From positions 1 through 57,079 of the forward strand of contig CAZZBE010000004.1 in assembly GCA_964652715.1 (NCBI GenBank): 57,079 nucleotides of DNA. Direction: 5' to 3'. The translations under genes and the position numbers were made by a program. Under the pieces are notes generated by a model that was not told the origin of the DNA, made no database searches, and saw only the letters and a list, made by a program, of their open reading frames with translations. The stretch's first letter is position 1; each line of letters opens with the position of its first letter. Positions 3,124 to 53,364 of the stretch are shown here, in pieces. Source of the DNA: an uncultured Desulfobacteraceae bacterium. Lineage in GTDB: Bacteria; Desulfobacterota; Desulfobacteria; Desulfobacterales; JAABSP01.

Positions 3124-4440
3124 ATGAATGCCAGGAAACCTGAATCAAAGAACATGTGGCGGCTGCATGTCGAGAATTTTGGAAGAATTAAAAGAGCCGA
3201 TATCGACATCGCGCCCATGTTAATTTTTGTGGGACCTAACAATACCGGGAAAAGCTATCTAACGACGCTTTTATGGGGCCTGCTGGAGCTAAGAACCAGC
3301 ATCTTTCCATTAGAGCCGCCAAGCATACCCGATTATGTGCTTTGCAGGGATCTTTGGATTTCCCATTGCCAAAATAAAGAGGAATGGCTGTCGGAAGAGA
3401 TTGTCGAAGCCCTTATCCGATTCTACAATGTCGTTATTGATGAAAAGAAAGATGAAGTTTTAGAAAAAATTTTTACATTCAGTGGCATGAGAATTGGAAA
3501 AATTACTGTCAATTTAATCAGAAATGGACCCATTAAACGCGATATGCCCGCCGTATTGCCCGAGGAAAGTGCTACAGACTATGAGAATAAAATTTATCGC
3601 CAGCTTCGTCGGCTGATCAACATCTTGTTATTTGATGGTAGAAACAAACCACTTTATCTGCCCGCTTCTCGAACCGGCTTCATTATTTCCTACAAAGCGC
3701 TCACCAAAGAACTGATGGAGTCGTGGGGGCTGGAAAAGAGCGCAAAAAGCGATTTTCCTTTGCCTATTATTCGTTTTCTTCAAGCACTTATAGAGGTAGA
3801 CATACGAAAAGACAGGCAGTTGGATATTTCTTTCAATTCGGAATGCCACAGCATCGCACAATGCATGGAAAAAGAGATATTGGAGGGGGAAATTAGTCAG
3901 CATCCTGACCCGATACCGAGTTTTTATTATCAGGCTGAAAAAATCAACCATCCGTTACCTCTTCATGTAACTTCCTCTTTAGTGAGCGAGCTGTCCCCGC
4001 TGATTATTTTTCTGAAAGCTAAAACGGACATTGGTACACCGCTGATTTTCGAAGAACCGGAATCCCATTTGCATCTAAAAGCTCAACGAATACTGGCAAA
4101 ATATCTTGTCAAATTGATAAATCATGGAATGCCGATCTGGCTGACAACTCATAGCGACACCTTCTTTCAACAAGTCAACAATTTGATCGCTTCCAACGAA
4201 TATCGAAAAGGCAAACTTAAAGAACTCGGCTATTCAGAAGACGAGATGATCGCACCGGACGATATAAGGGCTTATCAGTTTAATGTCCAACATGAAACCG
4301 GAATGACGGAAGTCGTCCCGCTGAAACGAACGGAAGCTGGATTCGCCGCGCCTACCTTCAATTATGAGATTTTGAGTCTGTCAAAGGAAAGTATGGATCT
4401 GGAAAGCGATACGAAAAGGCCGACAGCCCCATGTCTCTAA
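3124..4440 (+). CDS. AAA_15/AAA_21-type (ABC/OLD-like) ATPase, stand-alone, no nuclease domain
   Basis: Walker A is GPNNTGKS, there is a Q-loop-like LPASRTG, Walker B/D-loop is LIFEEPESHLH and the H-loop is TTHSD. The gene is clearly AT-richer than both flanks. It starts 3 nt after the polA stop, and its TAA overlaps the next ATG. Confidence 0.85.
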   Translation: MNARKPESKNMWRLHVENFGRIKRADIDIAPMLIFVGPNNTGKSYLTTLLWGLLELRTSIFPLEPPSIPDYVLCRDLWISHCQNKEEWLSEEIVEALIRFYNVVIDEKKDEVLEKIFTFSGMRIGKITVNLIRNGPIKRDMPAVLPEESATDYENKIYRQLRRLINILLFDGRNKPLYLPASRTGFIISYKALTKELMESWGLEKSAKSDFPLPIIRFLQALIEVDIRKDRQLDISFNSECHSIAQCMEKEILEGEISQHPDPIPSFYYQAEKINHPLPLHVTSSLVSELSPLIIFLKAKTDIGTPLIFEEPESHLHLKAQRILAKYLVKLINHGMPIWLTTHSDTFFQQVNNLIASNEYRKGKLKELGYSEDEMIAPDDIRAYQFNVQHETGMTEVVPLKRTEAGFAAPTFNYEILSLSKESMDLESDTKRPTAPCL

Positions 4441-5369
4441 CATTATACTGGCTCCAGTGCGGCGGCTGCGGCGGCGACACATGGTCGTTGTTCAACGCCC
4501 GTATGCCCCATCTTTCCGAGCTGTTCGGGATGCTCGACATCGAGTTGCTGTGGCACCCGTCTGTTTCCGCCCTGTCGCTGAAGGAACAGGACCGGCTGCT
4601 GGCGGACCTGATTTCGGGCGAGCGGCCGCTTGACGTGCTCTGCATCGAAGGATCGGTCATCCGGGGGCCCGGCGGGACGGGGATGTACGACGAGGCCTAC
4701 GGCCGGCCCAAAAAGGATCTGGCGGCGGACCTGGCCAAAATGGCCCGGCATATCGTCGCCGTGGGCGCCTGCGCGAGCTTCGGCGGCATCGGCGCCGACG
4801 GGGAGATCGAGGCCACCGGGGTCCAGTACCACAAATGGGACAAAGGCGGATTTCTGGGCCCGGACTTCGAGACCCTGAGCGGAACCCCCGTCATCAACCT
4901 GCCCGGGTGCCCCTGCCACTGCGATGTGGTTACCGGCGTCCTCTCCCAACTGGCGGCGGGCGGCGTCATGGAGATGGGGGACTACGGCATGCCGCTGGAA
5001 TGGTACGGCATGATGGTCCATCAAGGGTGTACCCGCAACGAATACCACGAGTACCGGGTGGAGGAAAAACGATTCGGGGAAAAGGGGTGCATGTTTTTCT
5101 ACCTCGGCTGTCACGGACCGCTGGTCAAGGGGCCCTGCAACAAGATCCTCTGGAACGGCCGGTCTTCCAAGACCCGGGTGGGGGTCCCCTGTTTTGGCTG
5201 CACCCGTCCCGATTTTCCCCAGCAATATCCCTTTTTCAAGACCCGGAACATCGAGGGGATTCCCATCGACCTGCCCGACGGGGTGGGGCGGGCCCATTAT
5301 CTGGCCTACAAGGGCATGGCGGCGGCGGCCGCGCCCCAACGGCTCAAAAAACGAAAAACCGGGATCTAG
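4431..5369 (+). CDS. [NiFe]-hydrogenase small subunit, cytoplasmic (no Tat signal)
   Basis: The N-terminus is MSLTLYWLQCGGCGG. GACASFGG, GCPCHC and C-terminal Cys clusters for FeS ligation are present. No RRxFxK twin-arginine leader is present. Confidence 0.9.
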   Translation: MSLTLYWLQCGGCGGDTWSLFNARMPHLSELFGMLDIELLWHPSVSALSLKEQDRLLADLISGERPLDVLCIEGSVIRGPGGTGMYDEAYGRPKKDLAADLAKMARHIVAVGACASFGGIGADGEIEATGVQYHKWDKGGFLGPDFETLSGTPVINLPGCPCHCDVVTGVLSQLAAGGVMEMGDYGMPLEWYGMMVHQGCTRNEYHEYRVEEKRFGEKGCMFFYLGCHGPLVKGPCNKILWNGRSSKTRVGVPCFGCTRPDFPQQYPFFKTRNIEGIPIDLPDGVGRAHYLAYKGMAAAAAPQRLKKRKTGI

Positions 5370-5385
5370 GGCGAGGGTTCAGCGG

Positions 5386-6888
5386 ATGCCGCGGGACAAA
5401 AAACAGATCCGGATCTTTCCCTTCAACCGCGTCGAAGGGGACCTGAAGGTCCATCTCCGGATCGAGGACGGGGTCGTCCGGGACGCCTGGTGCGCGGGGT
5501 CCATGTACCGGGGGTTCGAGAACATCATGAAGGGTCGGGGGCCCCTGGACGGCCTGGTGATCACCCCCCGGATCTGCGGCATCTGCACCACGGCCCACCT
5601 GACGGCCGCGGCCCGGGCACTGGACATGGTCTGCGGGGTCCGCGTGCCGGGCAACGCCCTCCGGGTCCGGAATGTGGCGCTTTTGGCGGAGATGATCCAG
5701 AACGACGTCCGCCACGCGGTCCAGCTCTTCATGGCCGACTTCACCCGGCCCGGATATGAAGATCATCCCCTCCACGGAGAGGCCCGGCGGCGGTACGAAC
5801 CCATGAAGGGGGCCAGCGCCCTCCAGGCCGTGTCGGAGAGCCGGTCCCTGCTGGAGATCATCGCGATTCTCGGGGGCCAGTGGCCCCATTCCTCCTTCAT
5901 GGTCCCCGGCGGCGTGGTCTGTCTGCCCAGCGCCAACGACATCAGCCAGTGCCGGCATCTGGCCCGCCATTACCGGCGCTGGTACGAGGAACGGGTGCTG
6001 GGGTGTTCCCTGGAGCGGTGGTCCGGGGTGACCTCCCGGGCGGCGCTCAAGGAATGGCTGGCGGCGTCCGGGGACCACCGGAAGAGCGAGCTGGGGTTTT
6101 TTATCCGGTTCGCCCGGACCGCGGGGCTTCACAAAATCGGCGGCGGCCGCGGCCATTTCATCGGTTTCGGCGGACTGGTCATTCCCAAGGACAGCGAGGC
6201 GGCCGCCCCCGGCCGGGACGGGGAATTGTTCCCGCCGGGATTCTACCGGGACGGCGAGGCGGCTCCCATGGATCAGAAACGGATCACCGAGGCCATCGAC
6301 TGCTCCTGGTTCGCCGGCTACCGGGCGCCGCGCCACCCCTTCGAGGGGATGACCCGTCCCTATGCCGCGGGCAACGAAAACCGGCAGTACACCTGGGCCA
6401 AGGCGCCCCGGTACGACGGGCTGCCCGCCGAGACGGGCCCCCTGGCCCAGATGCTCCTGGCCGGCGATCCCCTGCTGACGGAACTGATCCGGGAAGAAGG
6501 CCCGTCGGTCTTCGCCCGGCAACTGGCCCGGATCGTCCGGTCGTCCCGGACCCTCCCGGCCCTGGAGACGTGGCTCCGGGAGCTGAGTCGGCGCCAGGGG
6601 TTGTTCTACAACGACGCCCCGCCATTGGAGCAGGGGAGAGGCTTCGGTCTGGTGGAGGCCCCCCGCGGCGCCCTGGGCCACTGGGTCGTCATCGACAACG
6701 GGGCGATCCAGTCCTATCAGGTCATTACGCCCACCACCTGGAACGCGTCCCCCCGGGACCGCCAGGGGGCCCGGGGCCCCATGGAGGAAGCCCTGGTCGG
6801 GACCCCGGTCCGGGACCCGGACGATCCCCTGGAGGCCGAACTCGTGGTCCGATCCTTCGATCCCTGTCTGGTATGCACGGTCCATTAG
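5386..6888 (+). CDS. [NiFe]-hydrogenase large subunit, sensory-type (no C-terminal extension)
   Basis: The N-terminal Ni-binding motif is RICGICTTAH. The C-terminal motif DPCLVCTVH forms the last residues before the stop. I chose the ATG at 5386 (MPRDKKQIRIFPFNRVEGDL), because the track start at 5194 lies out of frame inside the small-subunit gene. Confidence 0.9.
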   Translation: MPRDKKQIRIFPFNRVEGDLKVHLRIEDGVVRDAWCAGSMYRGFENIMKGRGPLDGLVITPRICGICTTAHLTAAARALDMVCGVRVPGNALRVRNVALLAEMIQNDVRHAVQLFMADFTRPGYEDHPLHGEARRRYEPMKGASALQAVSESRSLLEIIAILGGQWPHSSFMVPGGVVCLPSANDISQCRHLARHYRRWYEERVLGCSLERWSGVTSRAALKEWLAASGDHRKSELGFFIRFARTAGLHKIGGGRGHFIGFGGLVIPKDSEAAAPGRDGELFPPGFYRDGEAAPMDQKRITEAIDCSWFAGYRAPRHPFEGMTRPYAAGNENRQYTWAKAPRYDGLPAETGPLAQMLLAGDPLLTELIREEGPSVFARQLARIVRSSRTLPALETWLRELSRRQGLFYNDAPPLEQGRGFGLVEAPRGALGHWVVIDNGAIQSYQVITPTTWNASPRDRQGARGPMEEALVGTPVRDPDDPLEAELVVRSFDPCLVCTVH

Positions 6889-6929
6889 ACCGCATATCTT
6901 CCCGGCCGGACCCCCGAAGCATCGGGGGA

Positions 6930-9900
6930 ATGGACCCCGACGCCGCGGCGGCGCTGACGGCGGAAAACCGGCTGCTGCGGGAGGAGATCCGGGTGGCCCG
7001 GGACGCCGCCGAAATCACCGCCGCCCTGGTGGTCCGGCAGTTCGAAGAGACCGAGAAGATTCTCCACCGGTTTCAATCGGCCAATGCCCAGCGGAAGGCC
7101 GTCCTCAATTCCGCAGCCCAGATCTCCATCATCGCCGCCGACGGGGACGGGGTCATCTCCGTTTTCAACACCGGCGCCGAGAACCTGCTGGGCTACCGGG
7201 CCAACGAGGTCATCGGACGCCAGACCCCCGAGATCTTCCACGCGGAATCGGAGCTGACCCGGCGGGGCAAGATCCTCGGCGTTCCGGCCTACGCGCTGCT
7301 CCAGGAATACGCCGTCCGGGACATGTCCGAGGGGTCGGAGTGGACCTACGTGCGGCGGGACGGCGGCCGTTTCCCCGTCAACATGACCATCAACGCGTTG
7401 CGGGACCCGGAGGGGATGGTGAGCGGGTACCTGTGCATCGCCATGGACATCACGGAGCGGAAGCAGGCCGAGGAGGGACTGCGGCAGGCCCACGACCAGC
7501 TCGAACGCCGGGTCCTGGAGCGGACCCGGGAATTGGCCGAGGCCAACGAAGACCTGCAAAGCGAAATCCGGGAGCGGAAGGGGATCGAACGGAGCCTTCG
7601 GGAGAGCCAGGCCGAAATGGCCGGGATCATGGACTCCATCACCGACCGGATGAGCATGCTCGACGAGACCCTGACCATCGTCTGGGCCAACGACATCGCC
7701 AAGCGGTTGTTCGGCCAGGACATGATCGGCAAAAAATGCCACGAGGTCTACCGTCGGCGGTCCGACGCCTGCGAGAACTGCGTCGCCCTGCGGACCTTCG
7801 CGGACGGGAAGATCCATGAGCACGAAACCGACGCCGTTTCGGTGGACGGCGAACGGCTGATCTTCTGGTGCACCACCAGCGTGACCGCCTGGCATCCGGA
7901 CGGCCGCCCGAGGCTGGTGGTGGAAAACGCCCGGGACATCACCGCCCGGAAAAAGGCCGAGGAGGCCCTGCGCGCCTCCGAGGAGAACTACCGGTCCATC
8001 TTCGAGAACGCCACCGAGGGGATCTTCCAGACGACCCCCGACGGCCGGATCCTCGCCGTCAACCCCGCCTTTGTCCGGATCGTGGGATACGACTCCGAGG
8101 AGGAGCTGCTCGGAAGCGTCACCGACCTGAGAGAGCAGCTCTACGTCAACCCCGAAAAGCGGGACGAATTCAAACGGCTCATGACCCGGCAGGGGGCGGC
8201 GACCAATTTCGAAACCCGGTTCCATCGCAAGGACGGCGACATCATCCACATCTCCGTCAACGCCCACGCCGTCCGGGACAAGAACGGGGAGATCGTCTAT
8301 TACGAGGGGATCCTCGAGGACATCACCCAGCGGAAGCGGGCCGAAGACCTCAAGATCGCCAAGGACGCCGCCGAAGCCGCCACCCGGGCCAAGAGCGATT
8401 TTCTGGCCAACATGAGCCACGAGATTCGCACGCCCCTCAACGCCATCATCGGCCTGACGGACCTGAGCCTCCGGACCGATCTGTCCGGCAAGCAGCGGGA
8501 CTACCTCCGAAAGATCAGCACCTCCGGCCGCACCCTGCTGGAGATCATCAACGACATCCTCGATTTCTCCAAGATCGAGGCCGGCCGGATGGAACTGGAA
8601 CGCACCGAGTTCAACCTCCAGGACAAGCTGGAAAACCTGGCGGACATGCTGTCGGGCAAGGCCGGCGAAAAAGGCATCGAACTCGTGGCGTCGGCGGACG
8701 AGGATGTGCCCCGAACCCTCATCGGCGACCCGCTGCGGCTGGGCCAGGTGCTGACCAACCTGACCAACAACGCCGTCAAGTTCACGGACAGCGGCGACGT
8801 GACCGTCCGCGTCTCGCTCTTGCAGAAAGACGCCGACCGGGTGCGCCTCCGGTTCACGATCCAGGACAGCGGCATCGGGATCGATCGGGAGGTGATCCGG
8901 AACCTCTTCACCCCCTTTACCCAGGCCGACGGGTCCACCACCCGGAAATACGGCGGCACCGGCCTGGGACTGGCCATCTCCAAACGTCTGGTGGAGATGA
9001 TGCACGGCGAAATCCGGGCCATGAGCGAGCCCGGCGGGGGGGCCACCTTCCACTTCACGGCCCGTTTCGATCTGCCGGAACAGCGGCCGGAGAAAAAGCC
9101 CGAAGCGCCCCGACACCTCAGCGGCAAGGAGATCCTGGTGGTGGACGACAACGACGCCGCCCGGGAAATCATCCGGCAGACCCTTTGCTCCTTCGGATTC
9201 CGGGCCGAGGGGGTCGAATCCGGGTCGGCCGCCATTGAAATCCTCAAGGGGAGGGGAGGGGAGGGCGGTTTCGATCTCCTCATCGTCGATTGGATGATGC
9301 CCGAAATGGACGGCATCGACACGCTGAAGCGGATCCGCGGGGATCCCGAACTCCCGACGCCGCCGGTTCTCATGATGACGGCCTTCGGCCGGGAGGAGGT
9401 GATGCAGCAGGCGGAGAACCTGGGGGTGGCCGGCTTCCTGATCAAACCCATCAAGATGTCGGTGCTGTTCGACACTCTCATGGGGGTCTTCGGCGCCAAT
9501 AGCGACGGGCCGGCCGCCGACGCCGGCGAGGCGGCGGATATGCCGGTCCGGGGCCGCCTCCGCGGGGCGAAGGTGCTGGTGGTGGAGGACAACCGCATCA
9601 ACCGGCAGGTGGCCACCGAACTCCTGACGAGCGCCGGGTTGCGGGTGGAGACCGCCGAAAACGGCAAAGCCGCGCTGGCGGCCGTTCAGAAAGGCGATTA
9701 CGATGCCGTGCTGATGGACATCCAGATGCCGGAAATGGACGGTTACGAGGCCACCCGCGTTCTGCGCCGGGATTTCGGACGCCGCGATCTGCCCATCATC
9801 GCCATGACCGCCCACGCCCTCAAGGGGGACCGGGAAAAATGCCTGGCCGCCGGCATGAACGACTACGTCGCCAAACCCATCGACAGAGAGGAACTGCTGA

Positions 9901-10616
9901 CCGTGTTGTCCCAGTGGGCGGCGCCGAAGCCGGGAAGAGAGGAGGGGGAGAAGGGGCCGGATCCCGGCGAGTTGCCCGGGGTTCCGGGGATCGATGTGGC
10001 CGCCGGGGTCAACCGCGTCAGCGGCAACCGGCCGCTTTTCCTGAAGATCCTGTCGTCCTTCGCCGAAGAGTACAGCGCCGTTTCATCGACGGTCCGGGAG
10101 GCGCTGGACCGGGGCGATGTCCACGAAGCGCTCCGGGAGGTCCATACGGTCAAGGGCGTCGCGGGCAACATTTCCGCCCGGGGGCTGGCCTCGGCCGCTC
10201 TGGAGCTGGAAAGCGCGTTGAGAGAGACCGGCGGCGCCGACCGGGACCTGATCGAGGACTTCGACCGGGCGGTCGGGAAGGTGCTGGACGCGATCCACCG
10301 GTTGATGGCGATGAAAGACCGGTTCGCGGGCGCGGATGATCCGGAAGCCGACTTGTCCGACAGAATCCTTGGGGCGCCGCCGGAAAAGGCGGAGGTCTAT
10401 GAACGGTTGATCGCCCTGGACCGGCTGCTCCAGGCCAACGACCTGGAGGCCGAAGAGGCGCTGGCGGGATTGAAACAGTTTTTGGCCCCCTGGCCCGAAG
10501 GAAAGGAGATCCTGGAGAAAATCGAAGATCGCATCGACCGGCTCGATTTCAGCGGCGCCAGACAGGAATTGACGGGGATGGCGCGGCTATTGTCCCTGCC
10601 GACGGAGGCGCCCTGA
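6930..10616 (+). CDS. soluble hybrid sensor histidine kinase (3x PAS, HisKA, HATPase_c, 2x REC, Hpt)
   Basis: H-box SHEIRTPLN, G-box GGTGLGLAIS, receiver motifs DWMMPEMDG and DIQMPEMDG, and Hpt HTVKG are present. I saw no TM segments. The start is the first ATG after the large-subunit stop. The 1578-aa track ORF is an out-of-frame read-through artefact upstream of 6930. Confidence 0.88.
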   Translation: MDPDAAAALTAENRLLREEIRVARDAAEITAALVVRQFEETEKILHRFQSANAQRKAVLNSAAQISIIAADGDGVISVFNTGAENLLGYRANEVIGRQTPEIFHAESELTRRGKILGVPAYALLQEYAVRDMSEGSEWTYVRRDGGRFPVNMTINALRDPEGMVSGYLCIAMDITERKQAEEGLRQAHDQLERRVLERTRELAEANEDLQSEIRERKGIERSLRESQAEMAGIMDSITDRMSMLDETLTIVWANDIAKRLFGQDMIGKKCHEVYRRRSDACENCVALRTFADGKIHEHETDAVSVDGERLIFWCTTSVTAWHPDGRPRLVVENARDITARKKAEEALRASEENYRSIFENATEGIFQTTPDGRILAVNPAFVRIVGYDSEEELLGSVTDLREQLYVNPEKRDEFKRLMTRQGAATNFETRFHRKDGDIIHISVNAHAVRDKNGEIVYYEGILEDITQRKRAEDLKIAKDAAEAATRAKSDFLANMSHEIRTPLNAIIGLTDLSLRTDLSGKQRDYLRKISTSGRTLLEIINDILDFSKIEAGRMELERTEFNLQDKLENLADMLSGKAGEKGIELVASADEDVPRTLIGDPLRLGQVLTNLTNNAVKFTDSGDVTVRVSLLQKDADRVRLRFTIQDSGIGIDREVIRNLFTPFTQADGSTTRKYGGTGLGLAISKRLVEMMHGEIRAMSEPGGGATFHFTARFDLPEQRPEKKPEAPRHLSGKEILVVDDNDAAREIIRQTLCSFGFRAEGVESGSAAIEILKGRGGEGGFDLLIVDWMMPEMDGIDTLKRIRGDPELPTPPVLMMTAFGREEVMQQAENLGVAGFLIKPIKMSVLFDTLMGVFGANSDGPAADAGEAADMPVRGRLRGAKVLVVEDNRINRQVATELLTSAGLRVETAENGKAALAAVQKGDYDAVLMDIQMPEMDGYEATRVLRRDFGRRDLPIIAMTAHALKGDREKCLAAGMNDYVAKPIDREELLTVLSQWAAPKPGREEGEKGPDPGELPGVPGIDVAAGVNRVSGNRPLFLKILSSFAEEYSAVSSTVREALDRGDVHEALREVHTVKGVAGNISARGLASAALELESALRETGGADRDLIEDFDRAVGKVLDAIHRLMAMKDRFAGADDPEADLSDRILGAPPEKAEVYERLIALDRLLQANDLEAEEALAGLKQFLAPWPEGKEILEKIEDRIDRLDFSGARQELTGMARLLSLPTEAP

Positions 10617-10617
10617 G

Positions 10618-11535
10618 ATGACGGATGACCGTCGGAAACAGCGGGTGCTGATCGTGGACGACGCCCCTGGAAATATCCGGGTGCTGGCCCAGGTGTTGAA
10701 GCCCCTGTACGCGGTCCGCTTCGCCACCAGCGGAAAAGAGGCGCTGGATCTGGCCATGTCCGGCGATCCCCTCGACCTCGTCCTGCTGGACATCATGATG
10801 CCGGAGATGGATGGATACGAAGTCTGCCGTCGCCTCAAAGCGTCCGAAAAGACGCGCCACATCCCGGTGATCTTTATCACCGCCATGAACGAGGAGGAGG
10901 ACGAGACCAAAGGGCTGGAACTCGGCGCCGTGGATTACATCACGAAACCCTTCAGCAAGGCCATCGTCAAGGCCCGGGTCCGGACCCACCTGGAACTGAA
11001 GCGGCACCGGGACATCCTCGAAAACCTGTCCTCCCTGGACGGGCTGACGGGGATCCCCAACCGGCGGCGGTTCGATGAATTCGTCGCCACCGAGTGGCGC
11101 AACGGGATCCGGGAGGGGAGGCCGATGTCCCTCATCATGATCGACATCGATTATTTCGGCGCCTACAACAATACCTACAACCATCTGGCGGGCGACGATT
11201 GCCTCAAGCGCGTGGCGACGACCCTGACGGGATGCCTGCGCCGGCCCACGGATTTCGCGGCCCGGTACGGCGGTGAGGAATTCTCGGCCGTCCTGCCGAA
11301 AACCGATCTGGAGGGGGCCGCGCACATGGCCGAACAGATGCGGGCGTCGGTTGAAGCCCTCCGGATCGAACACGACGCTTCGCCCGTTTCGGACTGGGTG
11401 ACCATCAGCCTGGGCGTCGCGAGCATCCTGCCGTTCCGGGAGGGTACGGCCCAGTTTTTGATCAAAGGCAGCGACAGCGTGCTCTTCGACGCCAAGAAGG
11501 CCGGCAGAAATCAGGTCAAAACCCTTCAATTGTAA
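10618..11535 (+). CDS. response regulator with GGDEF output (PleD-like diguanylate cyclase)
   Basis: The REC domain carries LLDIMMPEMDG. The GGDEF domain has an intact RYGGEEF and an RxxD I-site (RPTD) 5 residues upstream. The ATG lies 1 nt after the kinase stop (TGAGATG). Confidence 0.93.
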   Translation: MTDDRRKQRVLIVDDAPGNIRVLAQVLKPLYAVRFATSGKEALDLAMSGDPLDLVLLDIMMPEMDGYEVCRRLKASEKTRHIPVIFITAMNEEEDETKGLELGAVDYITKPFSKAIVKARVRTHLELKRHRDILENLSSLDGLTGIPNRRRFDEFVATEWRNGIREGRPMSLIMIDIDYFGAYNNTYNHLAGDDCLKRVATTLTGCLRRPTDFAARYGGEEFSAVLPKTDLEGAAHMAEQMRASVEALRIEHDASPVSDWVTISLGVASILPFREGTAQFLIKGSDSVLFDAKKAGRNQVKTLQL

Positions 11536-11568
11536 AACCACCCAATATGATTATATTGGGTGGTTTTA
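11533..11568. terminator. perfect 16-bp-stem palindrome (TAAAACCACCCAATAT-GATT-ATATTGGGTGGTTTTA)
   Basis: A-run and T-run flanks give a bidirectional intrinsic-terminator shape. It begins at the TAA stop of the REC-GGDEF gene (first two stem bases are the last two of the stop codon) and ends 19 nt upstream of the recombinase ATG. An alternative role as a recombination site is discussed in findings. Confidence 0.55.
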
Positions 11569-11586
11569 ACCAGGAGCAGCCGGAAA

Positions 11587-12516
11587 ATGAGTGACACTGT
11601 GGCGGAAAAACCCAAAATGACCCTCCGCGACGCCGTCGAGGCGCATCTCGTCGAAAAACAGGCCCTGGGACAACTGAGCGACGCCACGGTCTACAACCGG
11701 CGTTATGAGCTGACGCGGTTCGCGGAGTATTGCGAAATCCGGAACATCCGCCATCCGGACGAGATCGACAAAGAGTCGATTCTGGGGTATCTGAAAATCC
11801 AGAATCTGAAGAAAAGCTCCAGGACGACGCTCATGTATGTCCTGAACAGCTTCATGCAGTTTTTGGTGGATGAAGGCCTGGTTTCGGAAAATGCGGCCGA
11901 GGGTCTGGAGAAACCCAAATTCTATCTTCCCAAAACCGATTATCTCACCATCGACGAATTGAACCGGCTGATGGTCGCGGAACAAAATAAAAAGAATCGG
12001 AAAACGGTGGCCCGGAATCTGCTCCTGTTCGGCCTGTTCACCGATATCTGTCTGCGGGTTTCGGAGGTCGTCAACCTGAAGCTCACCGACATCCGGCTCG
12101 AAGAAAAAGAGATCTGGGTGACCCGGAAGCGCGGCAAAGAAGAAAAAATTCCGTTACATACCGATTTAATACAAAAATTCAAGGACTGGCTGGCCATCCG
12201 CCCCACCTACAAGGGGAGCCTGCGGGACTGGGTGTTCCTGTCCAGCCACGGCCAGCGGTTGACCCGCCGGCAGGTGCATGACATCACCCGGTCGGCGCTG
12301 AAAAGAGCGGGCATCTTCAAGCGGCAAGAGGGCCCTCACCTCCTGCGCCATTCCGGGGCGAGCCTCAAGGCGCGGTCGGGCGAAAACCTGATCATTATCC
12401 AGTACTTACTGGGTCATGAAAACCTGAACACCACCCGCCGCTATCTCCACTTCGACTGGGAGGAATTGAAGGAGATGGTGGACCGGAGCCCGAGGTTGGG
12501 GGAAGAGTCGCAATGA
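11587..12516 (+). CDS. tyrosine recombinase/integrase, XerC/D-like
   Basis: The catalytic signature is CLRVSE (R), HLLRHSGAS (HxxR) and LLGHENLNTTRRYLH (H..Y). An AGGAG lies 10 nt upstream of the ATG at 11587. The track start at 11560 lies inside the palindrome. Confidence 0.85.
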   Translation: MSDTVAEKPKMTLRDAVEAHLVEKQALGQLSDATVYNRRYELTRFAEYCEIRNIRHPDEIDKESILGYLKIQNLKKSSRTTLMYVLNSFMQFLVDEGLVSENAAEGLEKPKFYLPKTDYLTIDELNRLMVAEQNKKNRKTVARNLLLFGLFTDICLRVSEVVNLKLTDIRLEEKEIWVTRKRGKEEKIPLHTDLIQKFKDWLAIRPTYKGSLRDWVFLSSHGQRLTRRQVHDITRSALKRAGIFKRQEGPHLLRHSGASLKARSGENLIIIQYLLGHENLNTTRRYLHFDWEELKEMVDRSPRLGEESQ

Positions 12517-22780: not shown

Positions 22781-24007
22781 ATGGGCGCACCCGTACTATC
22801 CGGCAGTCTCGATTTTCTCGCCCTGGGCGACCTCATCCAGGTCATCGGCCCCAACGGCGGCACCGGCGTGCTTCGGATCATCTCCCCGTACGCGCCGGAG
22901 CCCGGCCTGCTTTATTTCGTCAAGGGCAACATCACCAACGCCAAAGCCCGGGACAAAAGCGGACTGAAGGCGGCCTACGCGCTTTTCGGCTGGCTCGAAG
23001 GGACCTTCGAATTCGTCGAAGAAGAGGTCGCGGTCCCCAAGGTCATCAACGAAAACCGGATGGCCATTATCCTCGACGGCAACCGAATGCTGGACGACGG
23101 GCAGATCGAGAAGCTGGGACCGATCTCCTTCGAAGAGCAGATGGCCGCCGCCGCCGACGAGGCCGCCCACTACGACAAGCCCCTCTCCCATCCCGTCATC
23201 AAGGGGCCGCTGGTGGATTACATGTACGTGGTCAGCGAAGACGCCTTTTCCGAGGGGCAGACCATCGTGGAGGAGAACACCCACGGCTCCTGGAACTGGA
23301 CCGTTCTGGAGGGGCTGGTGGACATCGTCAAGGAGACGAGCAAAGGGCCCATCAAGCTCTACCGGATGGGGGACGGCGCCTTCCTGGGGAGCCTCGACGC
23401 TCTTTCTTTTAAAGGAGGCCCCCGGAACGCCACGGCGGTGGCGGCCTCCAACGTCCAGCTGGGGGTCCTCGACACCCAGCGCCTGACCTCGGAATACGCC
23501 GCCCTGTCCCCGGCCTTTCGCAAGCTGCTGTGGAGCCTGGAAAACCGGTTGCGGGAGGTGACCGAGTACGCCATCGGGGCCCGCCAGAACGCCCACGACA
23601 CCAAAGAACTGCTGAAGAACGCCAAACTGGTGATCCGCCAGAGCAGCAGCGAACTCCGCAACTTCTTCACCATCGTCGAAGGCGGGGCGTTCGTGGTTCA
23701 GCACACGGACATCGGCCAACTGCTGCTGTCCAAACTCGGGCCCGGGGATTTTGTGGGGAAAATTCCGTTTCTGGACATCGGGCACGAACCCCTCACGGCG
23801 TCGGTCTTCGCCACATCGACCTTCAAGGTGGACAAGCCGGACATCACCCGGCTCAAGGAGGAGTACGAAGGGCTTTCCGGCATGTTCCGCGGATTGATCG
23901 ACAATGTCTCCACCAGCGTCATGGTCGCGACCCGGCTGGCCTACGACTTTCAGCGGCGGAACGCGGCCGACCGGGCCAAAAAGCAGCCAAAATCAAAAAA
24001 AAGATAA
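22781..24007 (+). CDS. DUF4388 (PATAN) domain protein with two cNMP-binding-like domains
   Basis: The N-terminus LSGSLDFLALGDLIQVIGPNGGTGVLRI ... GNITNA ... ALFGWLEGTFEF is the DUF4388 signature. Two beta-roll cNMP-like segments follow. Confidence 0.75.
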   Translation: MGAPVLSGSLDFLALGDLIQVIGPNGGTGVLRIISPYAPEPGLLYFVKGNITNAKARDKSGLKAAYALFGWLEGTFEFVEEEVAVPKVINENRMAIILDGNRMLDDGQIEKLGPISFEEQMAAAADEAAHYDKPLSHPVIKGPLVDYMYVVSEDAFSEGQTIVEENTHGSWNWTVLEGLVDIVKETSKGPIKLYRMGDGAFLGSLDALSFKGGPRNATAVAASNVQLGVLDTQRLTSEYAALSPAFRKLLWSLENRLREVTEYAIGARQNAHDTKELLKNAKLVIRQSSSELRNFFTIVEGGAFVVQHTDIGQLLLSKLGPGDFVGKIPFLDIGHEPLTASVFATSTFKVDKPDITRLKEEYEGLSGMFRGLIDNVSTSVMVATRLAYDFQRRNAADRAKKQPKSKKR

Positions 24008-34067: not shown

Positions 34068-36398
34068 ATGAGCAAGGAGATTTACAAATATCTGGCCGGC
34101 GTGCCCCCTTTTTCCGAACTGCCCAGGGGGGAGCTGGGCAGGATCATCGACAAGACCGCCGAGGTCGTCCATCCGGCCGGAACCACCCTGGCGGTCCAGG
34201 CCCGGACCCGGATCGAGAACGTGCTGGTCATCCGGAGCGGCGTTCTGAAGCTCTATTACGACCGGGACGGAGAAGAGATCCATGTCCGCCGTCAGAAGCG
34301 GGGTCGGATTTTCGGCGGCATTTCGATTCTCATGAACGGCGGGTTTTCGGTGCGGACCGTGGAGGTGGAGGAGGAGGCCACGGTCTATGCCATCCCGGCG
34401 GACCTGTTCCAGGAGATCTGCGACCGGCGCCGGCGGTTTTACGAGTTTTTCGTCCGGGACTTCAGTGAGCAGATGGACGACGAATCCTACGCCGACATCG
34501 TCGCCGCCAACCAGGCCTTTCGGTTTCTGCGGGACGTTCCCCCCTTCTCCTTTCTGGAATCCGACGAACTGGAACGGGTCGCCGAAAAGGCGATCCGGGC
34601 GCATTACCCGGCCGACACCGTGCTGTTCGTCCAGGGACGGTCCAGGGTCGATCACCTCCACGTCATCGAAAAAGGGGCGGCCGAACGCTACTACGAGGAA
34701 AAGGACAAGAAGACGCTGCGCGGCGTGATCAGCGAAGGGGACCTGTACGGCGGCATTTCCATGCTCATGAACAACGGCGTGGCGGTCCGGACCCTCCGGA
34801 CCAACGAAAAAACCTATTTCTACCTCATCCCCCGGTCGGTTTTCCTCGACCTCTGTCAGCGGTTCGAGGCGTTTTCCGAGTATTTCTCGGACACCTTCGG
34901 CAAACGGATGCTGGATCGCTCCTACGCCGAGATCGTGGCCAAAACCATCGAGTCCCGGGAAGAGGCCCTCCAGTTCTTCAATCGTCCTGTTTCCAGCTGC
35001 TACAACCCCCATGTCCTTTCCTGCCGGATGGATCTCTCCATCCAGGAGGCGGCGCGGACCATGAGCGAACAGAAGTGCTCCTCCATTCTCGTTCGGAACG
35101 CCGAAAGCGACTATGTGGGGATCCTGACGGACAACGATCTGCGGCGGAAGGTGATCGCGGAAGGGTACGACATCCGGAAGCCCGTGAGCGACGTGATGAC
35201 CGCGCCCCTCAAGACCATCTCCGCCGGCGCGGAAATTTTCGAAACCTTCATGACCATGATGCGCGACCATATCAAGCACCTGGCCGTGGTCGACACCGAC
35301 GAGCGGGTGGTGGGCGTGGTCGGCAACCGGGACCTCCTGACCGCGCAGGGCCGGTCCCCTTTCTTTTTCATTCGGGACATCAACGACACCGAGGGGGTCG
35401 AACCGCTCCGGGACAAATACCGGGAACTCCCCGAAGTGGTTCAGAACCTGATCCAGAGCGGCGCCAAGTCGGACAACATCAACAGTTTCATCACCAGCAT
35501 CTCGGACAGCATCCTGGAGAAGCTGGTGGCCGATGCCGTCCGGGAGGTCGGAGAACCGCCCTGCCGGTTCGTCTTCATGATCATGGGCAGCGAAGGCCGC
35601 AAGGAACAGACCCTCAAAACGGACCAGGACAACGCCATCGTTTTCGAAGACGTCGAAGAAGACAAGGCGAAGGAGACCCAGGCCTATTTCCTGAAACTGG
35701 GCGAGACGGTCTGCGACTGGCTCAATGAAGTGGGATACGCCTTCTGCGAGGGCGGGGTCATGGCCAAAAACCGCAAATGGTGCCAGCCCCTGGCGGTCTG
35801 GAAAGGCCATTTCAGCTCCTGGATCCACGCGGCCGAGGCCGAGGACCTCCTCCAGGCGTCCATTTTTTTCGATTTTCGCACCGGCTACGGCGACGCGGCC
35901 CTGGTGGAGGACCTGCGGGCGTTCCTCTTCAGCTCCCTGGGGGGATGGTCCGGGTTTTTCCGCCACCTGGCCGAAAACGCGCTCCATTTCAAACCGCCCC
36001 TGGGGTTTTTCAGGAGTTTCGTGGTGGAGTCCAAGGGTCGGCACCGGAACAAATTCGACATCAAGAGCGCCATGACGCCCATCGTCGATTTCGCCCGGAT
36101 CTACGCTTTGAAACACAAAATCCCGGAGACCAACACCCTGGAGCGGCTCCACGGACTTTATCTCAAGAAATTCCTCAGCTGGGACGAGTACAACGAACTG
36201 GATCAGGCCTACGGGTTCCTGATGCAGATCCGGTTCCTGCGCCAGACCACCGCCGTGCTGGAAGAGGAGGCGCCGCCGGACAACTATGTGAATCCCAAAA
36301 AGCTTTCCGTCATCGAACAGACCATGCTCAAAGAGATCTTCAAGCGGACGGAGAAGTTTCAGGGAAAATTAAACTTTGATTTTATTGGAATCATCTGA
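34068..36398 (+). CDS. 2x cNMP-binding, CBS pair, DUF294-type (pol-beta fold) nucleotidyltransferase
   Basis: Two cNMP-like beta-rolls and two CBS motifs (VGILTDNDL, VGVVGNRDLL) are present. The NTase motif is MGSEGRKEQTLKTDQDN (GS..DxD), followed by a helical DUF294_C-like tail. Confidence 0.85.
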   Translation: MSKEIYKYLAGVPPFSELPRGELGRIIDKTAEVVHPAGTTLAVQARTRIENVLVIRSGVLKLYYDRDGEEIHVRRQKRGRIFGGISILMNGGFSVRTVEVEEEATVYAIPADLFQEICDRRRRFYEFFVRDFSEQMDDESYADIVAANQAFRFLRDVPPFSFLESDELERVAEKAIRAHYPADTVLFVQGRSRVDHLHVIEKGAAERYYEEKDKKTLRGVISEGDLYGGISMLMNNGVAVRTLRTNEKTYFYLIPRSVFLDLCQRFEAFSEYFSDTFGKRMLDRSYAEIVAKTIESREEALQFFNRPVSSCYNPHVLSCRMDLSIQEAARTMSEQKCSSILVRNAESDYVGILTDNDLRRKVIAEGYDIRKPVSDVMTAPLKTISAGAEIFETFMTMMRDHIKHLAVVDTDERVVGVVGNRDLLTAQGRSPFFFIRDINDTEGVEPLRDKYRELPEVVQNLIQSGAKSDNINSFITSISDSILEKLVADAVREVGEPPCRFVFMIMGSEGRKEQTLKTDQDNAIVFEDVEEDKAKETQAYFLKLGETVCDWLNEVGYAFCEGGVMAKNRKWCQPLAVWKGHFSSWIHAAEAEDLLQASIFFDFRTGYGDAALVEDLRAFLFSSLGGWSGFFRHLAENALHFKPPLGFFRSFVVESKGRHRNKFDIKSAMTPIVDFARIYALKHKIPETNTLERLHGLYLKKFLSWDEYNELDQAYGFLMQIRFLRQTTAVLEEEAPPDNYVNPKKLSVIEQTMLKEIFKRTEKFQGKLNFDFIGII

Positions 36399-38697: not shown

Positions 38698-39897
38698 ATG
38701 GACACATTGCCGCCATTTCTTAAAAATAAGCTGCGTGACCGGACGCCCGCCGATGCAAATCCGCTTGCATACGCTCTTGTGAAACAGGCTTTGTCAGCTC
38801 AGGCATCGGAAGGTTCCCTTTCGGAACGCCTTGCGGCCGCGTTTGATCTAATCGTGGCAAGCAAATTCTATCAGTATGTCGAACCAGAGGGGTGGCTATG
38901 GTGCGGCAACTCTGGAAAGGATTTCTATCCGATTCTGAATGTTTGCCCCCATTGCGTCCTCGATAATCAATTTGTGCAAACCGAAGGACACAAACCAGGA
39001 TCGGGACAAATCGGTCCGACAACTGCTTTGGCCCTACGGGAAATAATCGCCGCCTATTTTCATCTGACAGGGAAATCAGATTGTTTTGTGTACAGGGCAA
39101 GTGAACCGATAGATCTCGCAGTGGTGGACAGAGAAAACAAGATTCTTTTCATTGCGGAAGTTAAGGCGGCGCCGTTGTTTACACCTCCCCTAGTTCGGCA
39201 ACATGCAACAGCGTCAATGCAAACCCAACTCGCAATGCCGCTGAAGCATTCCCTGGGCGTCGCTCGTGGATTGCATAAAGCAGAAGTGGGTTTGTATATC
39301 CCTGGTCTTGAAGCGCCTTTTGAAATTTTCCTGGCCCCCGGAACCGTTGGCCAAGCAATGCCTTTGGATCAACCGTTGGCGGCTGTTGTTGAGCGCGATT
39401 CCGCCATCGCCAATCGCTTTTTTAAGACTTGGCGTCGCATGTGGCGTTCGTATCAATGCAAAGATTCCACGACGCCTCTTTACTGGTTTTGCGGCGCTTG
39501 TGGCCGTCCGTCCAATCCAGGGGAGGGCTGGCCCCGGCAAGCGAATGGACGACCGAGGGGAACCATTTCCGATGGCAAGACAAGTGTCGGAATCGACAGA
39601 ACGGATGACATAAAAAAAGCGACATTCCAGGCCCTAAAACTTGGCGTGGAGAACAGGCGCAAGGACCCGTCCCCTTGGAGACTGCTCATTGGACTGGCAA
39701 GCAATCTTCACGCTTCGCGCCATTATGACGGTTATCTACGTCCTTATGAAGACTTAATATGGGGTTGGGCTGACGCTGCTGAAAATGACCGCGATCTTTA
39801 CAATCTTTTCGACGGGATTGTCTCGTTTACGCGCAGCCACATGCGGGACAAATGGCTTGCGAGCACGCTAGACTGGCACGGGAGTCGGGATGCGTAA
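38698..39897 (+). CDS. candidate type II restriction endonuclease (PD-ExK core plus Cys4 site)
   Basis: EPIDLAVVDRENKILFIAEVK gives a D139...E154-x-K156 arrangement. CxxC pairs lie at C83/C86 and C265/C268. Its stop overlaps the methyltransferase start (ATGCGTAA). Confidence 0.6.
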   Translation: MDTLPPFLKNKLRDRTPADANPLAYALVKQALSAQASEGSLSERLAAAFDLIVASKFYQYVEPEGWLWCGNSGKDFYPILNVCPHCVLDNQFVQTEGHKPGSGQIGPTTALALREIIAAYFHLTGKSDCFVYRASEPIDLAVVDRENKILFIAEVKAAPLFTPPLVRQHATASMQTQLAMPLKHSLGVARGLHKAEVGLYIPGLEAPFEIFLAPGTVGQAMPLDQPLAAVVERDSAIANRFFKTWRRMWRSYQCKDSTTPLYWFCGACGRPSNPGEGWPRQANGRPRGTISDGKTSVGIDRTDDIKKATFQALKLGVENRRKDPSPWRLLIGLASNLHASRHYDGYLRPYEDLIWGWADAAENDRDLYNLFDGIVSFTRSHMRDKWLASTLDWHGSRDA

Positions 39898-41095
39898 AAT
39901 ATCAATTTCACTGAAAGCGTTCAGCCATGTGCCGAGGAATGTCGGGCCAAAGGTTCAACAGCGCATCGACGCGCTCAAGGTCGGCCAGAAAATGCAAGAT
40001 TTGCCGGAGGAGCTGTGGCATGAAAGCTTTCGGTATTACGTTAAAGAAGATCCAACGAGAAAAGGCGGCCCTAATCTTCGCCTTGTCAGACTCGACCCTC
40101 GAAGACCTTCTCTTACCGTCACTGGGTTTATTTTTAATAAATTCGTGCATCCGGTTGAAAACAGACATATTACGCCGCGCGAGGCGGCTCGACTACAGGG
40201 ATTTCCTGACGATTTTTTGTTCCACGGCGCCTTGACGAGCGTGCAACGTCAGGTCGGAAACGCGGTGCCGGTGCAGTTGGCGACCGTCGTGACCGAATCT
40301 GTTTTGGCGCATCTGGAAAAACATCATCCTCTGGGCCTGGGCTCTCAAGTATTTTCTTCCGGCTGTTTACCTTCAATTAGCTTGTTTTCCGGGGCAGGCG
40401 GGATGGATCTCGGCGTTCTTAATGCGCAGCGTGGCAAATGGATTTTCGATTTGAAGAGATGCGTGGAACTCGATCATGATTGCTGCGAAACCCTTCGGAA
40501 AAATTTTGGATCAAAAGTGAACGTGGTTGAAAAAGATATCTCGACAATTGATCCCGATGAAACGCTGGCGCTATGCGAGGCGGACAACGCCTTGCTTCCG
40601 CTTGTGATTGGCGGTCCTCCTTGTCAGGCTTTTAGCCAGGCCGGGAAGCAGAAAGGCAAGCAGGATGACCGAGGGAAGCTCATTTTCGAATTTTTAAGGT
40701 TCATTCAGGAATTGCGGCCCGTTTATTTCATCATGGAGAATGTGTCAAACCTGCGGGGCGTGGCAAAAGGCGAGCTGCTTCAAGAGATACAGGATCGCAT
40801 AAACGATATGGGATACAACTTCACCTGCAACCTGCTTTGCGCTGCAGATTATGGCGCCGCTCAGTTGCGGCGGCGGCTGTTTTTTATTGGCGTCCGAAAA
40901 CCCTATCCCGCGGTTCGGCCGCCTCTGCCAACCCATGGAAAAACCGGGGACATTTTTTTTGTCCATAAACCGTATGTTGGCGTCGGTGAGGCATTTAAGG
41001 GCCTGCCTCCTTTAAAAAACGCTAATTTTGATTCCAAAATTGTGGTCCGCCCGGTTATGCGAGAGGCGCTCTTAAAACGTCATCTATGCTGTTAG
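39890..41095 (+). CDS. C5 cytosine DNA methyltransferase, circularly permuted (motifs IX-X precede I-VIII)
   Basis: Motif IX ITPREAARLQGFPDDF and X GNAVPV are at residues 93-127. Then come I LFSGAGG (165-171), IV GGPPCQAFS (241-249), VI ENV (282-284) and VIII QLRRR (325-329). Confidence 0.92.
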   Translation: MRKISISLKAFSHVPRNVGPKVQQRIDALKVGQKMQDLPEELWHESFRYYVKEDPTRKGGPNLRLVRLDPRRPSLTVTGFIFNKFVHPVENRHITPREAARLQGFPDDFLFHGALTSVQRQVGNAVPVQLATVVTESVLAHLEKHHPLGLGSQVFSSGCLPSISLFSGAGGMDLGVLNAQRGKWIFDLKRCVELDHDCCETLRKNFGSKVNVVEKDISTIDPDETLALCEADNALLPLVIGGPPCQAFSQAGKQKGKQDDRGKLIFEFLRFIQELRPVYFIMENVSNLRGVAKGELLQEIQDRINDMGYNFTCNLLCAADYGAAQLRRRLFFIGVRKPYPAVRPPLPTHGKTGDIFFVHKPYVGVGEAFKGLPPLKNANFDSKIVVRPVMREALLKRHLCC

Positions 41096-48209: not shown

Positions 48210-48995
48210 TCATTCGCTGCGCCAGTCTTTAAGCCCGTATTTCTTCAAAATATCCGCCAGTTGCCCCGACTTCCTCAGCTCTCGAATGCCGCGGCTCAAC
48301 TGCTTGGCGTAACGGAGAGAATCTGGATTGTTCGGCGCAAAAGCGATGTAGATGAAATTGGGCTCGCCGGTTTCCCCATCGCTGCCTGCGAATTCCAACC
48401 GGTCCATCACACCCATCTCGGAGGCGGTATTTCGAAAGACTGCCTCGGTTTCCAGCACCACATCGACTCTACCCTTCAGCAACATCTTAATATTCAACTC
48501 AAGCGCGTTTTCCCCAGCCGTTGTTATTACGCGTGGTGTGTTGCGATGGGTTTCAATATAATCGTCAAGTCGGCCGTACCCATAGTCCTGAATCACGGCC
48601 AGCGCGACATCATCCAGAGATTTGTCCCCCGCGTACCGCCACCCGAACCCTCTGCGAATAAAAAAGGCCCCGCCGGCATATCCGGTTTCAATGTCCGGAA
48701 ATACTAAATCGGGCGTCTCGGATTTCGACGCTCCGATGATGCCGTGAATCCTGCCTGCACGCGCCAACATGATTGACCTGGACCAATTGGTAGTCTCGTA
48801 ATCGATCATATGACCAAGCGGACGAAAAATTGACTGTGCAATCTCGACCATGTATCCCGGTTTTTCGGCGCCGGGTTGGCAGTTGTACGGGCACCATTCA
48901 TCAGCGTGCAGTGAAATGGTCTCGGAAAAAACGGCTGCCGGACACCAAACAACAATGAAAAGCAGGGCGAATACAAACCACACGTTTTTTATCAT
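48210..48995 (-). CDS. periplasmic solute-binding protein (family 3, amino-acid-type SBP fold)
   Basis: A signal peptide is present, with the bilobal SBP pattern ([11 protein letters not shown]..., [21 protein letters not shown]). Its start overlaps the MCP stop (ATGA). Confidence 0.82.
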
Positions 48996-50593: not shown

Positions 50594-51033
50594 GTCTCAC
50601 TGCCGTCGAAGATGGAAAGGCTATCATCATGGCGAATCGAGATCAATGAATTTTAGATGCTTAACGAAAATCTAACATTTCTTAATACAGGACCTTTACA
50701 CTCTTTGGAAAAATGGACATGCCGATTCTTTTGATTTCAACGAGTTATGACAAAAAGCGATGTCCATTTTTATTTATCGTAAAATCAAATTGTTACGCCA
50801 ATAATTGCCAAAAGATGTCAGGGTCCTGTAATAGAAATTTGAAAGTTGAAATTTCATATTGTTCAAAATGATATAGACCTCTTTTGACTTGACGCTCTAC
50901 CCCTGATTGGGCATAGTTTCCACCTGAACGATTCGAGGCGTGTTCTGGGCAAGGTATGACGAATTGCACGGTTAAATGGGAATTCTCTTTTCTCTAAACC
51001 GATATCGACGCTTGAGCTTCTGCTGTCGTGGGC

Positions 51034-53355: not shown

Positions 53356-53364
53356 CTTTTCCCC

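Follow-up and report, generated by a model that had tools for sequence, protein, structure and literature searches.

A predicted hydrogen-responsive operon joining a group 2c-type [NiFe]-hydrogenase to a hybrid histidine kinase and a diguanylate cyclase in an uncultured Desulfobacteraceae bacterium

Can the availability of hydrogen be converted directly into a second-messenger signal? Hydrogen is a central currency of anoxic sediments, and cyclic di-GMP (c-di-GMP) governs the choice between the attached and the free-living state; a direct pathway from the one to the other would let syntrophic or sulfate-reducing bacteria tune their aggregation to hydrogen supply. The question is raised by a four-gene operon at positions 4431-11535 of a 57,079-nucleotide (nt) stretch of DNA from an uncultured Desulfobacteraceae bacterium (assembly GCA_964652715.1, contig CAZZBE010000004.1, forward strand; the whole stretch is called ‘the window’ below), in which the genes for a [NiFe]-hydrogenase are followed by those for a histidine kinase and a diguanylate cyclase. 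The answer offered here, held as probable with appreciable room for doubt, is that the operon serves H2-responsive signalling and is of the type that the hydrogenase database HydDB designates group 2c. HydDB already contains the class to which the locus belongs, with a proposed function, and public data include several hundred loci of this type. The four genes are:

4431-5369, plus strand: [NiFe]-hydrogenase small subunit (SSU), 312 amino acids (aa), cytoplasmic; Pfam PF01058 and PF14720
5386-6888, plus strand: [NiFe]-hydrogenase large subunit (LSU), group 2, 2c-type, 500 aa; Pfam PF00374
6930-10616, plus strand: soluble hybrid histidine kinase, 1228 aa, with the domain order HKN-PAS-PAS-PAS-HisKA-HATPase_c-REC-REC-Hpt; Pfam
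10618-11535, plus strand: PleD/WspR-type response-regulator diguanylate cyclase (REC-GGDEF), 305 aa; Pfam Response_reg and GGDEF

An earlier note, made from the letters of this DNA, had reported four co-directional genes with short gaps here, and open reading frames and translations agree: the gaps between SSU and LSU, LSU and kinase, and kinase and REC-GGDEF gene are 16, 41 and 1 nt. Purine runs resembling ribosome-binding sites precede the LSU, kinase and REC-GGDEF starts. For the kinase, the ATG at 6870 was rejected in favour of the start at 6930, the former, an in-frame alternative for the kinase, overlapping the LSU gene, being without a ribosome-binding site and arising from conserved Val-Cys codons of the LSU. 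A scan for promoters and terminators gave nothing informative within the operon. The arrangement is not due to chance, for the order recurs in a relative with 84% identity and at many more distant loci. In that 84% relative the genes run polA, SSU, LSU, hybrid kinase, REC-GGDEF, tyrosine recombinase, ..., cysS, uvrB, and the window has the same order except for an extra ATPase gene between polA and the SSU gene.

Pfam scans of the large open reading frames across the window revealed neither hyp genes nor a second hydrogenase, and tblastn of the window with HypA-F, HoxM, HoxN and HoxA of pHG1 gave no match at E<=1e-3, which bears out the statement of the earlier note that hyp maturation genes and an energy-conserving hydrogenase are missing from it. 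By Pfam the operon encodes no electron-acceptor subunit, no membrane-anchor gene and no DNA-binding regulator, and there is no sigma-54 activator or DNA-binding regulator in operon or window. With a REC-GGDEF protein in the operon and no DNA-binding regulator, the terminal component is, as had been proposed, a c-di-GMP synthase by sequence and not a transcription factor. The highest Kyte-Doolittle score over 19-residue windows in all four proteins is 1.38 (1.29 for the SSU), and since none exceeds that value no transmembrane segment is present in any of the four.

To what group does the hydrogenase belong? Its LSU was placed among 80 loci gathered from species-representative genomes, to which references from plasmid records were added (HoxK/G, HoxB/C and HoxJ of pHG1; HupT/U/V of Fuscovulum; one Ideonella locus; one Mycobacterium 2a locus), the resulting neighbour-joining, distance-based tree having 87 sequences, 505 columns and 200 bootstraps, with no 2d or 2e references. 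The LSU sits in a 49-member clade A (92% bootstrap), the hosts of which are nearly all Desulfobacterota metagenome-assembled genomes (MAGs), with some Planctomycetota, Myxococcota, Nitrospinota and Betaproteobacteria; its nearest relative, with 84% identity, comes from the Desulfobacteraceae MAG S20.Bin143. Clade A is sister (99%) to a 23-member clade B (100%) that holds Methylobacter tundripaludum SV96 and Ideonella dechloratans. Genomes of isolates were met with in clade B only (M. tundripaludum SV96, Sedimenticola hydrogenitrophicus, Vibrio penaeicida). The 2b proteins HoxC and HupV pair with one another (100%) and, like the actinobacterial 2a enzymes, lie outside A+B, with HoxG (group 1) as outgroup. 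The M. tundripaludum HupL protein is the best group 2c match, and the consensus of the 2c L2 motif is SFDxCLVCTVH (PMC4853749). The window's SFDPCLVCTVH fits that consensus; clade B has SHD instead. From its place in the tree beside the reference 2c clade, together with the L2 match, the LSU is assigned to a sulfate-reducer-typical subclade of 2c-type enzymes, and it is as a group 2 enzyme of this type that it is treated throughout. The best match in PDB is Huc (group 2a, Mycobacterium smegmatis) with 401 bits, as against <=248 bits for group 1 structures and about 90 bits for those of group 3. The sensory-type classification put forward in the earlier note thus came through the phylogeny, the LSU standing outside groups 1, 3 and 4 and beside the reference 2c clade.

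HydDB lists group 2c as ‘Diguanylate cyclase-linked (putative)’ (PMC5037454). The statement in the earlier note that such an H2/c-di-GMP linkage is a matter of prediction only is in keeping with that label and with no experimental paper having come to light; the literature search for experiments with group 2c or on H2-to-c-di-GMP signalling found none, with many subscription papers lying outside its coverage, so that absence is not proven.

The LSU has all four Ni-Fe ligands (C64, C67, C494, C497). Its L1 motif, RICGICTTAH, retains His71, and the gas-gate residues are Ile66 and Leu114, as read from an alignment with HoxC, HupV and HoxG. Just as first read, the protein terminates at His500 (...SFDPCLVCTVH, then the stop codon) and has no C-terminal extension; ending at the C-terminal His, it therefore needs no protease. 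Most clade A LSUs have an extension of 2-20 residues, with a HycI protease gene adjoining in many, and both extension and protease gene have been lost in the window locus, its closest relative and one Desulfamplus group.

The SSU, reported earlier to be without a Tat leader, begins MSLTLYWLQCGGCGG; indeed no RRxF motif is present and nine residues stand ahead of the first cluster Cys. Its iron-sulfur ligands were read from an alignment with HoxB, HupU, Huc-like and HoxK proteins, conservation being scored over 48 clade A and 23 clade B SSUs. The distal cluster (H197, C200, C220, C227) retains its His ligand, and the medial cluster has C236, C254 and C257, with Lys at the position of the fourth Cys of HoxB/HupU (2b). 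The proximal cluster is the departure. Ligands C13, C114 and C160 are accompanied, at the second canonical Cys position, by Asp16 (codon 4476-4478), and there are extra cysteines, Cys10 (4458-4460), Cys162 (4914-4916) and Cys164 (4920-4922). The Asp16 position is Asp in 48/48 clade A and Asp or Glu in 22/22 clade B SSUs, and elsewhere Asn in 2a enzymes and Cys in 2b enzymes; this separation of 2c from 2a and 2b by a proximal-cluster Asp is, as far as we found, apparently new. Among the extra cysteines, Cys162 is shared by 40 of the 48 clade A proteins and Cys10 by 28. Together Asp16 and the added cysteines would imply an unusual proximal cluster. At its other end the SSU has a basic tail, ending ...AAAAPQRLKKRKTGI, that is near-invariant in length and sequence in clade A (...AAAAPxRLKxRKTxI).

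Several of these features would also suit an enzyme with nothing to signal. Might the hydrogenase be a working cytoplasmic uptake enzyme, Huc-like, that feeds metabolism, with the kinase and cyclase answering other PAS cues or being merely co-regulated with it? Huc is after all the closest solved structure, the L1 His and Leu gas gate are as in catalytic enzymes, and the medial cluster with three Cys is that of standard enzymes. Against such a role, the operon offers no electron-acceptor or membrane-anchor gene. The remaining evidence on the point comes from the kinase, whose parts are:

6936-7118, plus strand: HKN helix, kinase aa 3-63, conserved N-terminal helix
7122-7448, plus strand: PAS1; Pfam
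7632-7964, plus strand: PAS2; Pfam
7986-8339, plus strand: PAS3; Pfam
8388-8585, plus strand: HisKA, kinase core; Pfam
8724-9065, plus strand: HATPase_c, kinase core; Pfam
9126-9479, plus strand: REC1, phosphorelay tail; Pfam Response_reg
9573-9908, plus strand: REC2, phosphorelay tail; Pfam Response_reg
10047-10271, plus strand: Hpt, phosphorelay tail; Pfam Hpt

Pfam, motif positions and hydropathy confirm the description of the kinase in the earlier note (no transmembrane segment, three PAS domains, H-box SHEIRTPLN, HATPase, two receivers and an Hpt with HTVKG). The phospho-residues are His497 of the H-box, Asp787 and Asp930 of the receivers and His1072 of the Hpt domain, and the ATP-binding motifs are DSGIG (G1) and GTGLG (G2). 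The best NCBIfam matches are BarA/TorS/ArcB-type hybrid kinases, and, falling below every equivalog cut-off, the protein is not an orthologue of a named kinase. In an alignment of 14 three-PAS sensor regions PAS1 is strongly conserved together with the HKN helix. PAS2 has four cysteines (C270, C281, C284 and C314, at 7737-7871; GKKC-x10-CxxC...FWCTTSV) that may form a metal or Fe-S site and are conserved only in the window and loci L001, L010 and L051 of the set.

The N-terminal HKN helix is the candidate module for coupling the kinase to the hydrogenase. Its motif, ENxxLRxEIRVARxAAEITAxLVVxQFEETExIL, within about 60 residues, opens the partner protein at practically all clade A loci, irrespective of the domains behind it. 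For the survey of the loci, domains were assigned with hidden Markov models (HMMs), for which the domains of the window proteins and Pfam-verified proteins of the loci served as seeds, with domain-guided gene calling (L001 was taken from database gene calls). An HKN-bearing signalling protein directly follows the LSU, or HycI, in 46 of the 47 clade A loci with enough sequence, across several phyla. An exhaustive search with the HKN profile through 1.84 billion representative proteins gave 219 clusters, 164 of them at E<=1e-10, and a single one of the 150 clusters listed has the match elsewhere than at the N-terminus, this being a gene call fused to the HycI protease; word-indexed searches, by HKN profile alone and by HKN plus PAS1, gave 7 and 38 matches, mostly short fragments that told little of architecture. 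Partners are built as HKN-(0-3 PAS)-HK, to which REC-REC-Hpt may be added, or as HKN-(0-3 PAS)-GGDEF. In the reverse test all five of five proteins chosen by HKN alone proved to be encoded immediately downstream of a NiFe SSU/LSU pair or its protease. AlphaFold2, with a 35-sequence alignment, predicts a single uninterrupted helix from aa 3 to 63 running into PAS1, the mean predicted local distance difference test score (pLDDT) being 95, with block means of 89-96 over aa 1-70. HKN has no Pfam family and no PDB relative.

The shortest HKN proteins are perhaps the most instructive. At L050:11076-11795 and L049:3405-4205 the helix is fused directly to GGDEF in proteins of 239-266 aa with no other sensory domain, and PAS-GGDEF versions with HKN occur at L089:4901-6805 and L090:6001-7893; the minimal GGDEF partners each follow SSU-LSU-HycI. 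In such HKN-GGDEF and HKN-PAS-GGDEF proteins the input that elsewhere enters a kinase would act on a cyclase with no relay in between. (Database protein P0245 is a HycI-HKN-GGDEF fusion or a merged gene call.) Tentatively, as a possibility to be taken seriously though not as the expected outcome, HKN is proposed to be a new portable ‘hydrogenase-input’ module that would bind to the 2c-type enzyme, with the basic SSU tail as a conceivable docking site, and mechanically pass its H2 or redox state to the output behind the helix, be it a histidine kinase, a hybrid kinase or, directly, a diguanylate cyclase; as far as we found it is apparently undescribed before. HKN being acidic and the SSU tail basic, a contact between the two is open to speculation. 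Were the module reading true, the clade would be a family of H2-gated signalling proteins, and the minimal HKN-GGDEF pairs would offer the least complicated setting for working out how hydrogenase and signalling protein communicate.

How far beyond clade A does the helix extend? HoxJ, HupT and the clade B partners gave no significant direct HMM match to HKN. Clade B partners have a helix of similar length ahead of their first PAS, with a motif of its own, and profile-profile comparison of it with HKN by hhalign gave 72% probability over 47 ungapped columns, which is suggestive only, both being helical and charged; the Methylobacter-type partners may carry a diverged HKN version. A single protein usually follows HycI as the partner at clade B loci, that of Ideonella being annotated as a bifunctional cyclase/phosphodiesterase. 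That of M. tundripaludum SV96 (L056:11992-14616) is Rieske-PAS-PAS-GGDEF-EAL, starting with a Rieske [2Fe-2S] domain by Pfam (E=7e-6; CPHEGC...CPAH), and at the start of several further clade B partners a seed HMM recognises this same region. The domain suggests electron transfer from hydrogenase to signalling partner in clade B, and its presence on Methylobacter-type partners is another feature that is apparently new, as far as found.

Does the signal then travel as electrons rather than by conformational contact? On such a scheme electrons from H2 would run through the chain of Fe-S clusters to a PAS-bound redox cofactor, for instance in the four-Cys PAS2, and the redox state of the cofactor would set kinase activity, HKN being no more than a dimerisation or docking helix. 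The Rieske domain of the sister-clade partners, the conservation of the four PAS2 cysteines in the closest subclade and the retention of the distal-cluster His ligand, as in electron-exporting enzymes, all accord with it. However, the four-Cys PAS2 is confined to the window and the three loci already named, many clade A kinases (HKN-HK...) lack any PAS domain and a cofactor would find no space in HKN-GGDEF proteins. In favour of the uptake role considered above are also the three PAS domains of the kinase, one of them Cys-rich. It is opposed by the almost invariable adjoining of an HKN partner across several phyla, by the outcome of the reverse test beside these same hydrogenases and by minimal HKN-GGDEF partners with no sensory domain through which another cue might enter. 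As general explanations, both are weakened by the near-exclusive association of HKN with the hydrogenase and by the HKN-GGDEF partners that lack a cofactor; we regard the electron relay as unlikely and the metabolic uptake role as unlikely to the same degree.

The last gene raises the question of output. Its protein divides as follows:

10645-10980, plus strand: REC domain; Pfam
11032-11514, plus strand: GGDEF domain; Pfam

Pfam, motifs and an alignment with PleD uphold the earlier identification of a REC-GGDEF protein with an intact GGEEF and an RxxD I-site. The acceptor is Asp58, GGEEF is at 218 and the I-site RPTD at 209, five residues upstream of GGEEF. The alignment with PleD structures reaches 224 bits and covers REC, GGEEF and RxxD, and the NCBIfam match is to the PleD family with 268 bits, under the equivalog cut-off.

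A relation between kinase tail and following gene emerges when the loci are compared. Behind the 17 Hpt-bearing kinases there is REC-GGDEF in 14 cases, REC-HD-GYP in 1 and another protein in 2. After 20 kinases without Hpt, REC-GGDEF is next in none (0/20), the place being taken by a lone CheY-like receiver or by nothing recognisable. These counts are not phylogenetically independent; the REC-GGDEF loci nonetheless fall in several separate subclades of the tree. The hydrogenase-kinase-GGDEF order, on the conservation of which the earlier note had asked its reading to be judged, is hence kept both in the 84% relative and in those 14 Hpt-kinase loci. A kinase relay with strict Hpt/REC-GGDEF pairing in a subclade of sulfate reducers appears to be new as far as found.

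Might the REC-GGDEF protein nevertheless not be the real output? It could be a sink for phosphate, or a c-di-GMP receptor without enzymatic activity, while the kinase acts chiefly on a response regulator that is unlinked to it. It is common for an Hpt-containing hybrid kinase to feed several regulators, and a lone CheY-like REC pairs with many clade A members. Opposed to this are the intact GGEEF, substrate-binding region and I-site and the high-scoring alignment with active PleD, the co-occurrence just described (14/17 vs 0/20) and the gap of 1 nt to the kinase gene, and we consider such an unlinked output very improbable.

Other partners met with in the survey deserve mention. A REC-HD-GYP protein, a c-di-GMP phosphodiesterase, takes the place of REC-GGDEF after the Hpt kinase in some clade A loci (L031:8649-9824; also L025, L042 and L090), and HD-GYP proteins are nearby in further clade A loci. 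Some clade A loci (L024:14221-16584, L044:14219-16501, L014) have a non-hybrid HKN-PAS3-HK with a lone REC and with hypF directly downstream, and in several such loci (e.g. L016 and L024) a membrane histidine kinase of about 1000 aa, MMPL/RND-like, is encoded directly upstream of the SSU, the L016 copy having been checked with Pfam.

The preferred reading of the window operon as an H2-responsive signalling system can now be set out in steps. The soluble heterodimeric [NiFe]-hydrogenase would bind and oxidise cytoplasmic H2 as a sensor and not for energy conservation. It would be physically coupled to the neighbouring hybrid kinase, most likely through HKN and PAS1, its state altering autophosphorylation of the kinase at His497. 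The phosphoryl group would then pass to receiver Asp787 or Asp930, on to Hpt His1072 and finally to Asp58 of the REC-GGDEF protein, which, activated in a PleD/WspR-like manner, would make c-di-GMP, with the RxxD I-site providing product feedback. All the catalytic and phosphorelay residues that such a path calls upon are intact, namely the four Ni-Fe Cys, the H-box, the two receiver Asp, the Hpt His, GGEEF and RxxD. What the analysis shows directly is gene content, motifs, phylogenetic position, conserved linkage and the helix; what we infer is that a complex forms, that it depends on H2, whether H2 activates or inhibits, and what c-di-GMP goes on to control.

Several points weigh against this reading. 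More than half of clade A members have no adjoining c-di-GMP enzyme, which makes a c-di-GMP output a frequent option and not a property of the clade. The contact of HKN with the hydrogenase is deduced from co-occurrence only. The LSU may turn over H2 at a real rate, given its catalytic-like L1 His and Leu gate and an energy-conserving enzyme, Huc, as closest structure. The three PAS domains of the kinase, including PAS2 with its four conserved Cys, could sense other signals. Lastly, since the maturation genes are missing from the window, assembly of an active enzyme in this host has to be presumed.

The surroundings of the operon hold some further items. Immediately upstream, at 3124-4440 on the plus strand in a lower-GC stretch, is an AAA_15/AAA_21 ATPase resembling the defence protein PD-T4-4_A (PADLOC E=2e-37). 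Its gene overlaps the SSU start by 10 nt and is missing from the 84% relative, where the SSU begins 4 nt after polA; it is probably an insertion. Directly after REC-GGDEF (11560-12516, plus strand) comes a tyrosine recombinase; since the 84% relative has it in the corresponding position, a resident gene of XerC/D type is likelier than a mobile element. At 38698-41095 (plus strand) a type II restriction-modification pair comprises a restriction endonuclease (PADLOC REase_II, E=2e-61) and a C5 cytosine methyltransferase whose genes overlap. On the minus strand, at 48992-55443, are c-di-GMP and taxis genes, for a methyl-accepting chemotaxis protein (48992-50593), an EAL-CBS-GGDEF protein (51034-53355) and a PAS-PAS-GGDEF-EAL protein (53365-55443), and two cyclic-nucleotide (cNMP)-binding proteins are encoded at 22781-24007 and 34068-36398.

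What then does the locus contribute? Group 2c has been a prediction since 2016, and the locus itself, one that specialists would have expected, is no discovery. Its value is in the comparative handles that it yields: the HKN helix, the HKN-GGDEF partners of 239-266 aa, the proximal-cluster Asp and the strict Hpt/REC-GGDEF pairing. These handles make the predicted signalling of the class tractable to experiment.

How does the window operon compare with the systems already known? With Huc of M. smegmatis (group 2a; PDB 7UTD/7UUS) it shares retention of the L1 His and the lack of the second proximal Cys. Unlike the window, however, 2a enzymes have a long C-terminal extension, protease and accessory genes and no signalling partner, and they form a different clade.

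The 2b systems, HoxBC-HoxJ-HoxA of Cupriavidus necator and HupUV-HupT-HupR of Rhodobacter, were the likeness chosen in the earlier note, and a part of it stands. There too a soluble Tat-less dimer, its LSU ending at the C-terminal His, adjoins a soluble histidine kinase, the logic being from hydrogenase to kinase to response regulator, and the first gas-gate residue is Ile in HoxC/HupV as in the window LSU. The likeness fails at the active site and in the clusters. Where the window has His71 in L1, HoxC and HupV have Gln, and where it has Leu114 as second gate, HoxC has Phe110, the Ile and Phe gas-channel pair (HoxC I62/F110) being a sensor hallmark (PMC11023054). In the SSU, Asp16 replaces the second proximal Cys of HoxB/HupU and their fourth medial Cys is missing. 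With the L1 His kept, a Leu second gate, these different Fe-S ligands and a separate clade, membership in group 2b was rejected. The window kinase is moreover a hybrid with HKN, two REC and an Hpt, whereas the seed HMMs detected no HKN, PAS or REC in HoxJ and no HKN in HupT; and the predicted output is a c-di-GMP synthase in place of an NtrC-type transcription factor.

PleD and WspR share with the last protein the REC acceptor Asp, GGEEF and the RxxD I-site, alignment extending over the full REC and GGDEF, but PleD has two REC domains to its one, and in the window the input kinase is linked to a hydrogenase.

Closest are the loci of group 2c itself. Those of Methylobacter and Ideonella have a single Rieske-PAS-PAS-GGDEF-EAL protein as partner after the HycI protease; in contrast the window inserts a hybrid-kinase phosphorelay between the hydrogenase and REC-GGDEF, and its LSU has neither C-terminal extension nor protease gene. 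With the HydDB description of 2c the window has in common the cytosolic group 2 dimer, the genetic linkage to a GGDEF protein and a host of the sulfate-reducer type, the Desulfobacteraceae.

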